Of a stretch of DNA of 64,000 bases, positions 15,469 through 19,890 are shown one piece after another. This DNA is from Candidatus Borrarchaeum weybense (GTDB taxonomy: Archaea > Asgardarchaeota > Sifarchaeia > Borrarchaeales > Borrarchaeaceae), in the NCBI GenBank assembly GCA_019057385.1, contig JAHQJS010000004.1:1169068-1233067 (forward strand). The letters are read 5' to 3'. A program made the translations under genes and the position numbers. The notes under the pieces are model-generated. The model was given only the letters and a program-made list of their open reading frames with translations, did no database searches and was not told the DNA's origin. Within the stretch, counting starts at the first letter, position 1. Each line of letters opens with the position of its first letter.

Positions 15469-17346
15469 ATGACATTTAAAGATTTAATAGACCCGAATCC
15501 TAAGAAAGCCTTCTTACTAGCTAATGAAGCTATAGCAAGAGCGGCTATTGAAAAGGATGTTAAAGTAGCAGCATTTTATCCTGGTTCTCCTACAAGTGAA
15601 ATTTTAGATACAATGTATATTCTTGCAGGATATTTAGACGACCTAAAAATGGAAGTAGCTTCGAATGAAATGGTGGCTCTTGAAACCGTAGCTGGTGCTT
15701 CGATGGCGGGAGTACGTGGATTTACTTCTATGAAAAGTGTAGGACTAAATGTTGCTGCAGATTCATTCTTTAGTTTGGGCTATACTGGTGTAAATGCAGG
15801 TTTAGTTTTATTAATAGCGGATGATCCACATGCCCATTCTTCACAAAGTGAACAGGATGCAAGGATTTTCGGTGAAGCTGCACATGTACCTATGCTTGAA
15901 CCGTCTTCTGCACAAGAAGCATATGATATGGTTAAGTGGGCTTTTGACTTATCTGAAAAATACAAAATGCTGGTTCTGATCAGAACAACAACACGGGTAA
16001 ATCATCAAAGTGGAATAGTACAGTTAGGTGAACTGAAGAGAAAACCTTTCAAAAGAAACGATTGGAAAGAGATTCAAAGTAAATATTACACTTTAAGTGC
16101 TACTGCTAGAAGGTTAAAAGGAGAGGCTCTAGAGAAACTGAAAAAAGTCGAAGAAGAATTTGAAACGAATCCATTCAATAAACTAACTTTAGGAGAAGGA
16201 GATATTGGAATTATTACTTCTGGTGTTTCATATCTGCATGTTCTAGAGGCTGTTGACATCTTAAATATAAATCCTCATATCTTGAAACTTGGAACTACAC
16301 ATCCTCTCCCGAAACAAATGATTGGAGACTTCCTTAAAAAAGTCAACAAAGTCATAATTGTAGAAGAACTCATGCCGTATCTTGAATTAAGAGTTACTGC
16401 AATTGCCAAAGATGCGACCCCATCAGTTGAAATATACGGAAAATATACAAATAATTTTGATTATGTTGGAGAATACACTGTACAGTCAGTCGTTAAAGGA
16501 ATTTCCTCCGTTTTAGGTCTTGGTAGCCCAGTGGATTACGATTTTTATCTTAACCGTGCTGAAAAACTGAAATCTATTTTACCAAAGAGAATGCCTACCT
16601 TCTGCCCAGGATGCCCGCACAGATCGACATTATGGGCAGTGCAACAGGCTATCAAGGAGCAAGACTATGTTGTCAACAATGACATCGGCTGTTATTCGAT
16701 GCTGCTTTTGGAGCCGTATGAAATTACTGACTCTTTATTGTGCATGGGGGCGTCTCTAGGCATTTCAAGCGGTATGCAACACGCACTTAATGATAAAGTC
16801 ATTTCATTCGTAGGTGACTCAACATTTTTCCATGCTTCATTGCCGGGGTTTGTAAACGCTGTGCATAATAAACACAATATTACTGTGTTCATCCTAGATA
16901 ATGCAGTCACCGCTATGACTGGTCAACAGCCAAATCCTGGTTCTGATTTTGGAGCACTTCCAGTTGTTGAAATTGACATCGAGGCCATCGTTAGAGCTAT
17001 TGGTGTCGAGCATGTTACCATGATCAATGCCTTTGATCCTAAGAACAACGTTGACAAGATAAAAGAGGCTTTAGAATTTGAAGGAGTTTCTGTTGTAATT
17101 TCAAAAGGTCCTTGTGCTTTATATAATGACCGCTTGAAGAGAAAACGCGGAGTTCCGATAATTCCGAATATGGTCGATAAGGAAGAGTGTAAGACTATCT
17201 ATGCTTGTATTAGGGACTTCTACTGTCCTGCAATTGAGATGGATATGGAAAGCCGGCAAGCTGTCATTCTAAAAGATTTATGCGATGGCTGCATGGTCTG
17301 TGCCAAACTCTGTCCAGTTTCGTCAATAAAAACTACAGGTGGTTGA
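15469..17346 (+). CDS. iorA: Indolepyruvate:ferredoxin oxidoreductase alpha subunit
   Basis: YPGSPTSEI, MKSVGLNVAAD, SSQSEQD, FCPGCPHR, DIGCY, GDSTFFH, C-terminal ferredoxin. Confidence 0.95.
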   Translation: MTFKDLIDPNPKKAFLLANEAIARAAIEKDVKVAAFYPGSPTSEILDTMYILAGYLDDLKMEVASNEMVALETVAGASMAGVRGFTSMKSVGLNVAADSFFSLGYTGVNAGLVLLIADDPHAHSSQSEQDARIFGEAAHVPMLEPSSAQEAYDMVKWAFDLSEKYKMLVLIRTTTRVNHQSGIVQLGELKRKPFKRNDWKEIQSKYYTLSATARRLKGEALEKLKKVEEEFETNPFNKLTLGEGDIGIITSGVSYLHVLEAVDILNINPHILKLGTTHPLPKQMIGDFLKKVNKVIIVEELMPYLELRVTAIAKDATPSVEIYGKYTNNFDYVGEYTVQSVVKGISSVLGLGSPVDYDFYLNRAEKLKSILPKRMPTFCPGCPHRSTLWAVQQAIKEQDYVVNNDIGCYSMLLLEPYEITDSLLCMGASLGISSGMQHALNDKVISFVGDSTFFHASLPGFVNAVHNKHNITVFILDNAVTAMTGQQPNPGSDFGALPVVEIDIEAIVRAIGVEHVTMINAFDPKNNVDKIKEALEFEGVSVVISKGPCALYNDRLKRKRGVPIIPNMVDKEECKTIYACIRDFYCPAIEMDMESRQAVILKDLCDGCMVCAKLCPVSSIKTTGG

Positions 17347-17347
17347 A

Positions 17348-18814
17348 ACAGTTCTAATTAACTTACTATAACTTTATATCACCTCATATTATTGAAGCGT
17401 CCACCTTCTGTGTCAGCTTTTAGTTACATCCTGGGGTCTGTCTGTTTATAGGGATGAGACCCCATAATTACTACTAGTTGTTAAACATGACGGCGATTAT
17501 TACACTGCCAGGGGTCATCACCTCGGTTACTAACAGGGCATTGTTGAATGCCCTTCTGCGAAAATTCGGCAATGCCCGAAGACGGGCTTTTTCTCTGAAA
17601 CGCAAAGGTTTAGCGACTTCCTGTATCGAAACAATCCTTCAGCAAGAAATCGGGCTCAATGCCCGTTATATTAAGGACGCATATTACTCCATCAAAGATT
17701 TACCTTATAATACCACGTTTGGGGGGTTGAAGAACCAGCGGTTGCGCGAGAAAGGTAAAATTACCAAAGAAGAATACAAGCAACGCCGAAATGCGCTCCT
17801 TATCTCCCGAGGAGAACGCTCTAAGAAGGGCAACCTCAACCTCAGACTTGATTTTTCCACCATGCAACTGCGCATCAACACCTGTCGTAACGATAACAAG
17901 TGGATGTTTGCCAATGTATTCATCCCGCAAAAATATCTCGACAAATACCATGGATATCTGGACGGTTCGCACCCTTATACCGTGCTGCTTAAGCGGCGGG
18001 ACTTTGACCGGGGCTATGACCTGCGTATCAGCATTAAAATCCCCTGCATGATACAGGAGGCCTCACGGGTGATGACACTGGATATCAATGCTGGTCACAC
18101 CGATTTCGCTGTGATGAACAAGGAGGATGGCATGCCTGTAGCGATAGGGAGGTTCAACCATCATAAGACCCAGTACACTAGGCGGGGAAAACGCAACCAT
18201 CTGTTGAACATGCTGGTGAGAAAGATCGGCAACTTAGCGCGACATTACTATGCTGAGGTAGTGGTGGGATCTCTCAACACAGGTAAGTTCAAAAGTTACA
18301 GCAAGAAAGCCACACGGACGATTCGCCAGCTGCCGCAGTACCAGTTTAGGCACTTGCTGAAGCGGTTGGAGTTGCAGGGTACAAAAGTGAGTGAAAGGTC
18401 GGAGGCCTACACCAGCAAGTTAGGTGACGTCATCTCTCAGTTAATAGGGTATGACATTCACAAGTGTGCGGCGATGATGTTCGCACTGAAGGTCATCAAC
18501 TATGACTTATTTAAGCAGTTGAAGACGTTTCTCTTCGGAGTCCCATCATATGAGGCTTATGGAAGGCGGAGACGTGGGCGAAGGAGAGAAAGCGGGCTAA
18601 CTGCCCCCATCCAGTACCGAAAGTTTCTAAAAAGTATGAAGTTCTGGATGGCGATGAACTCCTCAATAGTAAAAGAGGATGGAGGCTACCTCCCGACTCC
18701 AGGTAGGGAGGGGTTGTCCTTTCTGGACAATTTAAAAGCGAACTTTCCTTGTCTGACCATGAACATATGGTAAGCTATATGAAGATATGGTAAGTATCGT
18801 GACCTGGTGTTCAA
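17348..18814 (+). mobile_element. Non-autonomous IS607/IS605-like TnpB element inserted between iorA and iorB
   Basis: Removing it restores GGTGGTTGAA-TA-ATG (iorA stop next to iorB start). Higher GC than host. ATATGGTAAG twice at the right end (18764, 18785) with an inverted-like CTTACTATA at the left (~17362). No tnpA; boundaries +/- a few bp. Confidence 0.75.
17478..18773 (+). CDS. tnpB: TnpB-related RuvC protein without Zn finger, rearranged catalytic site
   Basis: FGG...EEYKQRRN..ISRG..KKGNLNLRL family signature; RuvC-I TLDIN, RuvC-II VVVGSL, SEAYTSK, IHKCAA; probable start ATG 17487. Confidence 0.8.
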   Translation: MLNMTAIITLPGVITSVTNRALLNALLRKFGNARRRAFSLKRKGLATSCIETILQQEIGLNARYIKDAYYSIKDLPYNTTFGGLKNQRLREKGKITKEEYKQRRNALLISRGERSKKGNLNLRLDFSTMQLRINTCRNDNKWMFANVFIPQKYLDKYHGYLDGSHPYTVLLKRRDFDRGYDLRISIKIPCMIQEASRVMTLDINAGHTDFAVMNKEDGMPVAIGRFNHHKTQYTRRGKRNHLLNMLVRKIGNLARHYYAEVVVGSLNTGKFKSYSKKATRTIRQLPQYQFRHLLKRLELQGTKVSERSEAYTSKLGDVISQLIGYDIHKCAAMMFALKVINYDLFKQLKTFLFGVPSYEAYGRRRRGRRRESGLTAPIQYRKFLKSMKFWMAMNSSIVKEDGGYLPTPGREGLSFLDNLKANFPCLTMNIW

Positions 18815-18816
18815 TA

Positions 18817-19449
18817 ATGGTAGCCGGTTATAATATTATGCTGTCGGGTGTTGGTGGTCAAGGACTTATGTTACTATCATCAATCATTGGAAATGCCTGT
18901 AACAAACTAGGACTGAAAGTAATAACTGGAGAACAGCATGGCCTCTCTCAAAGATCTGGCTCAATCTATGTCCATCTTAGAATCGGTGAAAAGGTACATT
19001 CGCCATTAATTCCTTATGGTTTCGCAGACATGATTATTTCTATGGAAGCTACTGAGGTTCTGCGTTATATTGAATTTCTCAAAGATGATGGAATCATCAT
19101 TATGAACAGACGTATTATGCATCCTTCTCTAGTAACTGCTGATATTGCAAAGCACAGAGATGAAAATCGTAGATATATCACCTTAGAACAGATATTTGCT
19201 CAGTTAAAACAAGTAACTAGCAATATTATTATATTAGACGCAACAAAACTTGCTGAACTTGCTGGGAATCCAAGAACCGAAAACACGGTATTGAGTGGTG
19301 CAGCCAGTGCTTTACAAGAGTTCCCCATCGATAAAGATGTTCTGAAGGAGGCTATCAAGGATTTGGTGCCATCTAAGACAATTGAAGAAAATATTAGAGC
19401 GTTTGACTTAGGCTATGAAGAGGCAAAGAAAATCCTTACGAGTCTATGA
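18817..19449 (+). CDS. iorB: Indolepyruvate:ferredoxin oxidoreductase beta subunit
   Basis: SGVGGQG, HGLSQRSGS, SPLIP, ENIRAFDLG; ATG 18817 lies just outside the element. Confidence 0.93.
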   Translation: MVAGYNIMLSGVGGQGLMLLSSIIGNACNKLGLKVITGEQHGLSQRSGSIYVHLRIGEKVHSPLIPYGFADMIISMEATEVLRYIEFLKDDGIIIMNRRIMHPSLVTADIAKHRDENRRYITLEQIFAQLKQVTSNIIILDATKLAELAGNPRTENTVLSGAASALQEFPIDKDVLKEAIKDLVPSKTIEENIRAFDLGYEEAKKILTSL

Positions 19450-19692: not shown

Positions 19693-19890
19693 ATGCCAGA
19701 AGGAACTGTAAAATTTTTCAATACTATGCGAAACTTCGGCTTTATTACCGGCGATGACGGCAAAGACTACTTCGTCCACATTAGTGGAATTAAAGAAGGA
19801 ACAGTAATTGGTGATGGTGACCGGGTCGCTTTTGAGGTAGTCCAAGGCGATAGAGGACCGAAGGCTGAACAAGTTGTAAAAATTGAGTGA
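19693..19890 (+). CDS. Cold-shock domain protein
   Basis: GTVKFFN..NFGFI, DYFVHISGI, GDRGPKA; SD GGAGG. Confidence 0.95.
   Translation: MPEGTVKFFNTMRNFGFITGDDGKDYFVHISGIKEGTVIGDGDRVAFEVVQGDRGPKAEQVVKIE

Follow-up and report, generated by a model that had tools for sequence, protein, structure and literature searches.

The stretch of DNA described here (hereafter the window) comprises 64,000 nucleotides of the Asgard archaeon Candidatus Borrarchaeum weybense (GenBank assembly GCA_019057385.1, contig JAHQJS010000004.1, positions 1,169,068 to 1,233,067 of the forward strand), and it holds a transposable element that carries a tnpB gene. We consider it likely that this is a non-autonomous IS607 element encoding a 428-residue TnpB and an omegaRNA, that the RuvC-II motif's glutamate has moved independently to a new position, and that the protein is still an active nuclease. 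Activity as an omegaRNA-guided nuclease is itself probable, and the best supported outcome, since the replacement residues are invariant, the two glutamate positions swap exclusively, the RNA is intact, and the relatives are linked to TnpA and found in variable contexts.

A preliminary description, made from the letters of the sequence, had placed an archaeal TnpB gene at 17478 to 18773, and this open reading frame (ORF) was confirmed on the forward strand. From its TTG start at 17478 it encodes 431 amino acids; homologues begin at an ATG at 17487 (MTAIITLPG), 9 nt inside the TTG, which gives a protein of 428 amino acids. Residue numbers throughout are those of the 431-residue version.

17487 to 18773, forward strand: tnpB, 428 amino acids, with a Cas12f/TnpB profile match, an AlphaFold2 (AF2) model and a ratio of non-synonymous to synonymous substitution rates (dN/dS) of 0.10-0.18.

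A local Pfam scan of the protein returned noise only, with no family match, and the match to NCBIfam TIGR01766 (TnpB-related) reached 25 bits, under its 32-bit cut-off. A word-indexed search recovered 290 homologues, all with the precomputed family PF27229 and labelled in their source records as IS605 OrfB or TnpB-related. The family is narrow: just 192 homologues came out of 1.84 billion cluster representatives that were searched exhaustively. A profile of 80 family members matched Cas12f and TnpB chains in the PDB (E 2e-9 to 1e-6). The AF2 model, built on an 80-member alignment, had a predicted local distance difference test score (pLDDT) of 87 and a predicted template modelling score (pTM) of 0.79, and when searched with Foldseek it gave Cas12f, Cas12k and TnpB (ISDra2, ISFba1) as best matches (E 1e-8 to 1e-4). 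Fanzor2 (9b0l) ranked 21st (E 1e-4), under many Cas12f chains, and RuvX (7ess) ranked 35th. On the profile and the model, the window protein is a member of the TnpB/Cas12 (OMEGA) superfamily, with a predicted WED-REC-RuvC fold.

The residues of its rearranged RuvC site lie as follows.

18081 to 18089, forward strand: RuvC-I, D202-I-N204, with D202 and N204 both invariant in 80 sequences.

18267 to 18269, forward strand: G264, found where beta4 ends, in place of the canonical RuvC-II Glu; the profile pairs it with the Glu of Cas12f iqiEnL, and the sister group has Glu here.

18402 to 18404, forward strand: E309, the relocated Glu, which falls in the loop that follows beta5, ahead of YTS. It does not vary within the core family, and Pro takes this position in the sister group and in Cas12f.

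18453 to 18461, forward strand: RuvC-III, D326-I-H328, with His conserved to 90% or more across the 80 sequences and D326 invariant in the core family only.

These assignments bear out what the preliminary description had read from the protein, namely a retained RuvC-I Asp, a Gly for the canonical RuvC-II Glu, a Glu 45 residues later before YTSK where ordinary TnpBs usually have Pro, a missing zinc finger, and H/D in RuvC-III. In the RuvC-I motif TLDIN, D202 (18081-83) is followed by N204, which completes a DxN; the RuvC-II motif VVVGSL puts G264 where the canonical Glu stands; and the Glu of SEAYTSK is E309, exactly 45 residues past G264 and opposite the Pro of Cas12f npqYTSq in the profile alignment. 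The RuvC-III motif YDIHKCAA holds D326 (18453-55) and H328 (18459-61). By motif register (H-K-C-A-A against D-x-N-A-A, using the DRDxN and NADxN RuvC-III motifs of PMC10691335), H328 would occupy the position of the canonical RuvC-III catalytic Asp. As the gap between YTSK and D326 is a linker of only 13 residues with no CxxC pair, the C4 zinc-finger/TNB insert is absent from the window TnpB.

In a 14-member core alignment (40-81% identity), D202, N204, S308, E309, T312, D326, H328 and K329 were invariant and G264 was at least 90% conserved. The preliminary description had staked its case in part on conservation of the downstream Glu among homologues, and the invariance of E309 in the core family upholds that part. 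The pattern D-G-E-D-H (hereafter G/E) was carried by 125 of the 194 full-length homologues, and D-E-P/A-x-H (hereafter E/P) by about 60, the more distant ones. Almost none of the 194 had Glu at both positions or at neither, with two single exceptions (G-K and D-C); a Glu at beta4 and one following beta5 thus exclude each other. No CxxC pair or zinc finger was present in any of these 194 proteins. The zinc-finger-less group as a whole has the RuvC-III His in common, and D326 is fixed in the G/E subfamily only. In the secondary structure of the AF2 model, D202 lies in beta1, G264 ends beta4, E309 stands two residues past beta5, and H328 opens the RuvC-III helix.

A maximum-likelihood (ML) tree was built from 21 G/E proteins, 65 zinc-finger-less E/P proteins and two zinc-finger TnpBs from neighbouring loci, which served as the outgroup. 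The G/E proteins formed one clade (Shimodaira-Hasegawa-like approximate likelihood ratio test, 98) placed among the E/P lineages, with one state change. Rooting was unstable (long branches), therefore we claim the monophyly of the G/E group and not the direction of the change.

The element that carries tnpB has been delimited to the base.

17344 to 18808, forward strand: solo (tnpA-less) IS607-type element of 1465 bp, defined by an empty site in a congener and by ends at which the flanks of three copies diverge.

17340 to 17343, forward strand: TGGT, shared by the target and the right end, left copy; it contains the GG crossover core.

17347 to 17400, forward strand: left end, with an AACAGT motif, 10-bp phased AACTT.ATAT repeats and a TATA-like TTTATAT, kept in three copies and in L010.

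Insertion took place two codons before the original stop of iorA, the first gene of an iorA-iorB pair. The empty iorA-iorB junction in a congener (G003, L040:1480-1510) reads ACAGGTGGTGTTCAATAATGG, and an empty junction is also present in a sediment metagenome (X6, loose ends). In the window, the left junction passes from ...GGTGGT into TGAAACAG and the right junction from ...GACCTGGT into GTTCAAT. When the empty site is compared with both junctions, the target and the right end are seen to share TGGT, with no duplication of the target site, which is conservative IS607-style insertion at a short shared core. DNA similarity among copies opens just past the iorA stop and closes 35 nt past the tnpB stop, at ...CGTGACCTGG(T). 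The right end is CCWGG in all family loci, followed by unrelated sequence, and the left flank is GGAGG at 22 distinct sites of relatives. The left end may serve both as a promoter and in TnpA binding.

The insertion sites, GGAGG or GGTGG (window 17336-17343), look like both Shine-Dalgarno sequences and Gly-Gly codons; this may be why copies lie at gene ends and operon junctions. A 10-nt unit, ATATGGTAAG, which contains the stop codon, is doubled in 10-bp phase before the right end (window 18762-18797) in Borrarchaeum-type copies and is single in other family members. It is the inverted counterpart of the left-end AACTTCATAT repeats, and the two sets of repeats are likely to be TnpA binding sites.

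The 3' end of tnpB also encodes a structured RNA.

18530 to 18808, forward strand: omegaRNA scaffold of about 280 nt, predicted from covariation and suppressed synonymous change, overlapping the last ~80 codons of tnpB and 35 nt past its stop.

18809 to 18828, forward strand: predicted guide segment, consisting of flanking DNA; family similarity ends right after CCWGG, and the segment overlaps the start of iorB at 18817.

A consensus fold of 30 diverse loci contained 50 pairs, 36 of them with compensatory changes. Folding a 380-nt alignment gave 67 pairs, of which 44 showed compensatory changes, with pairing in 95% of cells; when partners were slid by 1-3 columns as a control, 38-50% of cells were paired. 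Supported helices run from 18530 to 18795, and a single-stranded tail then reaches to 18808. Among the three copies in the genome, synonymous-codon identity was 0.73-0.81 over the last 100 codons, compared with 0.16-0.5 upstream, and synonymous divergence (dS) fell about 4-fold over the omegaRNA region, from ~1.0 to 0.2-0.3. No Rfam family matched the region. On this covariation and codon evidence, a structured omegaRNA lies at the 3' end of tnpB and ends at the right end of the element, the arrangement that marks a TnpB. As the omegaRNA ends there, the guide would come from flanking DNA, and by analogy 18809 to 18828 is its putative extent. Targets have GGWGG at the place where the right end has GACCTGG, a difference that could spare the occupied site. 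An Arg-rich stretch, GRRRRGRRRE, lies in the C-terminal 90 residues (window 18560-18700, residues ~362-408) and is disordered in the model (pLDDT <50). Protein and RNA constraints overlap at 18560-18700, since the same bases encode this stretch and form omegaRNA stems.

The window genome (G000, 4.18 Mb) has three full copies of the element, in unrelated contexts and with 80-81% protein identity. All three are intact, and over residues 1-330 dN/dS was 0.10-0.18 (~0.13) at dS ~1; the TnpB protein is maintained by purifying selection. An N-terminal fragment in the same genome (L008) carries a stop. One paralogous copy sits at the C-terminal Gly-Gly codons of a 98-amino-acid MoaD/ThiS/SAMP-like ORF (L002:1073-1369 and 1355, contig 5 of the window genome), which is prolonged by GNNYH beyond the diglycine, so that its ubiquitin-like C-terminus would be masked. 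The genome also holds about 11 copies of an E/P-type zinc-finger-less TnpB of ~510 amino acids each (L004-L007 and seven further places). This sister type, with the canonical RuvC-II Glu and the RuvC-III His (GLDFN / VVEDL / FPGYTS / SVHHLASY), is far more numerous in the genome than the window type.

The wider family was surveyed in 29 genomic and 43 metagenomic loci. Hosts named in the records included Candidatus Borrarchaeum (82% identity; the genus of the window genome), Alkanophaga, Methanophagales, Archaeoglobaceae, Hadarchaeota, Hydrothermarchaeales, Bathyarchaeia, Hermodarchaeota and Jordarchaeum. In four loci (L011, which is an Alkanophaga element, L013, L014 and L015) an IS607-type TnpA (MerR-HTH/HTH_17 plus Resolvase) is encoded immediately upstream and runs into the start of tnpB, and the AACAGT left end stands beside GGAGG in the tnpA-bearing elements L011, L015 and L021. 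Because relatives carry TnpA upstream and the window copy lacks tnpA, the latter is a solo derivative. No TnpA remnant was detected upstream of tnpB by tblastn with three TnpAs (E 0.13 or worse). The single Resolvase-domain gene of the window genome (L089) was considered as an IS607 TnpA and rejected, its catalytic domain being N-terminal and a MerR HTH (helix-turn-helix) being absent. In the match frame of two metagenomic relatives (L046 and L048, 82% identity) a stop follows 28 codons, yet they align over the full length and may be frameshifted or broken; L012, L030, L033, L034 and L037 look broken too.

We propose the following course of events. An archaeal TnpB clade would have lost the C4 zinc-finger/TNB insert and come to carry a RuvC-III His. 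Within that clade, the window subfamily may have shifted its RuvC-II Glu out of the position that closes beta4 (Gly264) and into the loop behind beta5 (Glu309), and fixed an Asp (D326) two residues before the His. The protein would remain a metal-dependent, omegaRNA-guided DNA nuclease, cutting empty sites that have a G-rich motif of the GGWGG type beside the guide match and so keeping its transposon, as TnpBs do. The relocated Glu would then be the structural solution of Fanzor and TnpB2, reached from an independent origin.

Several points weigh against this account. The literature searched gave no activity data for this subfamily or for any zinc-finger-less TnpB with a RuvC-III His. The placement of D202, E309, D326 and H328 is known as secondary structure of a model only, and convergence with Fanzors is judged from proxies. 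When searched with the TnpA protein of L011, the window genome gave nothing, and as no IS607 TnpA was found there and the copies are old (dS ~1), they are not currently transposing. With both canonical carboxylates replaced and the DNA-loading TNB domain gone, loss of cleavage with retention of binding is conceivable. The RNA evidence consists of short contigs of a wetland metatranscriptome (X20), 87-96% alike over parts of the gene and at a low share; coming from a relative (~90% alike), from an RNA library and with a low word share, they show neither transcription of the window locus nor RNA ends. These contigs include 18530-18681 and one begins at 18530, the predicted 5' edge of the scaffold, which is a lead only, as contigs cannot show RNA ends.

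The preliminary description had left open whether the protein is an active rearranged nuclease or a dead RNA-guided binder. A nuclease-dead DNA binder of the TldR or Cas12k kind, acting as a repressor, roadblock or targeting factor only, would fit the replacement of both the RuvC-II Glu and the RuvC-III Asp, the absent zinc-finger/TNB insert, a genome without a cognate TnpA, copies that are old yet intact, and the co-oriented position of the window copy within an operon; inactivated, exapted TnpBs are documented (PMC10691335). However, proteins from several archaeal phyla, at 40-55% identity, all keep E309, D326 and H328, and the swap between the two Glu positions is clean, as would be expected if the site works and not if it is dead. 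In exapted TnpBs the neighbours are fixed and the guides conserved, but the contexts of the present family vary and its similarity stops at the right end. Catalytic residues lost without a conserved replacement, a fixed partner and a conserved guide, which together mark TldR-like proteins, were not found. Furthermore, relatives are still linked to TnpA, and the same relocation of the Glu is catalytically competent in Fanzor and TvTnpB. We thus hold a dead binder to be unlikely, and of the two readings left open by the preliminary description the active nuclease is the better supported, by conservation, the swap, purifying selection, the omegaRNA and the TnpA-linked relatives.

Whether the protein is related to Fanzor or convergent with it had likewise been left open. 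In a true Fanzor relative, sister or ancestor, the relocated Glu would be inherited in common and the Asgard host would hint at a route into eukaryotes. The same Gly/Glu pattern with its 45-residue spacing, the RuvC-I DxN, the IS607 link, the Asgard archaeon as host and the Foldseek match to Fanzor2 (9b0l, E 1e-4) speak for such kinship. Nonetheless, the closest relatives by sequence and in the tree, among them the ~11 paralogues in the window genome, have the canonical Glu, and two features of the clade, zinc-finger loss and the RuvC-III His, are absent from Fanzors. The family profile matched Cas12f and TnpB chains and no Fanzor PDB chain at E of 1 or less, and Fanzor2 came only 21st by Foldseek. 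Rearrangements of RuvC-II have arisen in two major clades and eight large branches (PMC10691335). The Asgard host says little, because the family has spread by transfer across archaeal phyla (Halobacteriota, Hadarchaeota, Bathyarchaeia and Asgard). Descent shared with Fanzors is very improbable on these grounds. The relocation is most simply read as convergent, judging by shared and unshared features and by proxies, since the canonical Glu is retained by the nearest relatives and the clade as a whole has no zinc finger and a His at RuvC-III.

A decaying insertion-sequence relic with no present function, to which the lack of TnpA in the genome, the 80% identity of the copies, the fragment with a stop (L008) and several broken relatives might point, is scarcely credible given three intact copies with dN/dS of 0.10-0.18 at dS ~1 and RNA stems preserved through compensatory changes.

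The element has interrupted the following pair of genes.

15469 to 17346, forward strand: iorA, indolepyruvate/2-oxoacid:ferredoxin oxidoreductase alpha-like, named by the look of its sequence; its last two codons (VQ) are lost.

18817 to 19449, forward strand: iorB, with its true start at MVAGYNIMLSGVGGQG.

At the empty site the iorB ATG overlaps the iorA stop (TAATG). The element has separated this translationally coupled pair (window 17340-17346 and 18805-18819) and now provides the stop codon of iorA. It accounts for the 1.5-kb break in the iorAB operon of this genome. Lying 1.47 kb downstream of iorA, iorB would therefore need read-through or a promoter borne by the element. Further downstream, a 65-amino-acid ORF (window 19693-19890) looks like a cold-shock-domain protein (GTVKFFN...FGFI...FVH), a fold uncommon in archaea.

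If the window protein is active, it would test how much of the RuvC site and the TNB domain can be lost with RNA-guided cleavage kept, and it would offer a 428-residue scaffold with a putative G-rich target-adjacent motif (TAM). That it represents a second, independently evolved solution of the RuvC site, with the TNB domain dispensed with too, we put at a little short of an even chance; if so, it would lend itself to use as a small new scaffold for editing. As the exact ends, the empty site and a defined omegaRNA are known for the element, a bench test is straightforward. The relocated-Glu layout of Fanzors has also arisen in a zinc-finger-less archaeal TnpB clade with a RuvC-III His, which has no bearing on the origin of Fanzors.

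Taken singly, all features of the window protein have been published already. The combination in one clade was not found described, and it may possibly be one of the branches of PMC10691335; the family could equally be RIIIr-4 or an archaeal Ser-# or RIIr-# branch of that study, in which several rearranged TnpB branches are archaea-only. RIIIr-4 is a major clade without the zinc finger in which the RuvC-III Asp is replaced by His, and it was judged likely to be active as the substitution is conserved (PMC10691335). The window family resembles it in having no C4 zinc finger, a RuvC-III His, archaeal hosts and carriage on a mobile element, and the D-E-P-x-H sisters, including the ~11 copies in the window genome, fit its description. 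The window subfamily differs in also having Gly for the RuvC-II Glu, Glu after beta5 and an invariant Asp two residues before the His, and no RHH (ribbon-helix-helix)/MazE partner was seen at the window element.

The preliminary description had taken the Gly/Glu arrangement to be established in Fanzors and their close TnpB relatives, in agreement with PMC10530073 and PMC10691335. In Fanzors and a subset of TnpBs, the RuvC-II Glu is replaced by Gly or Pro and a Glu ~45 residues downstream is used instead, which is essential in ApmFNuc (PMC10530073); in the RIIr clades, Glu has become Gly with a RuvX-like Glu on beta5 (PMC10691335). The RIIr or 'TnpB2' group (RIIr-5; TvTnpB of Thermoplasma volcanium) shares with the window protein the Gly at RuvC-II and the Glu ~45 residues downstream before YTS, and TvTnpB, an archaeal relocated-Glu TnpB, is an active, TAM-dependent nuclease (PMC10530073). 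However, zinc finger and RuvC-III Asp are both retained in that group, and TvTnpB belongs to IS605 (Y1 TnpA) with the TAM NTGAC, whereas the window element is of the IS607 type with a GGWGG-like flank. Fanzor1 and Fanzor2 (PMC10432273, PMC10530073) have in common with it the relocated Glu, the RuvC-I DxN, an omegaRNA/fRNA over the 3' end of the ORF and the WED-REC-RuvC fold, but they are eukaryotic or of giant viruses, with a CCCC zinc finger, a RuvC-III Asp, a nuclear localisation signal and introns; SpuFz1 has the CCCC finger and binds Mg2+ via D383, N385, E541 and D606, the last being its RuvC-III Asp.

The likeness to RuvX/YqgF, in which the RuvX Glu is on beta5 (PMC10691335), is an analogy of active-site layout and not family membership. 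IS607 elements are matched in the serine-recombinase TnpA upstream of tnpB in relatives, the GG core at both junctions, the lack of target duplication and the subterminal repeats; the window copy differs in being without tnpA, and an IS607 TnpA was not found in its genome. The Argonaute PIWI domain has a DEDH tetrad, so a His can complete an RNase H-fold site, and here too the analogy is one of layout only.

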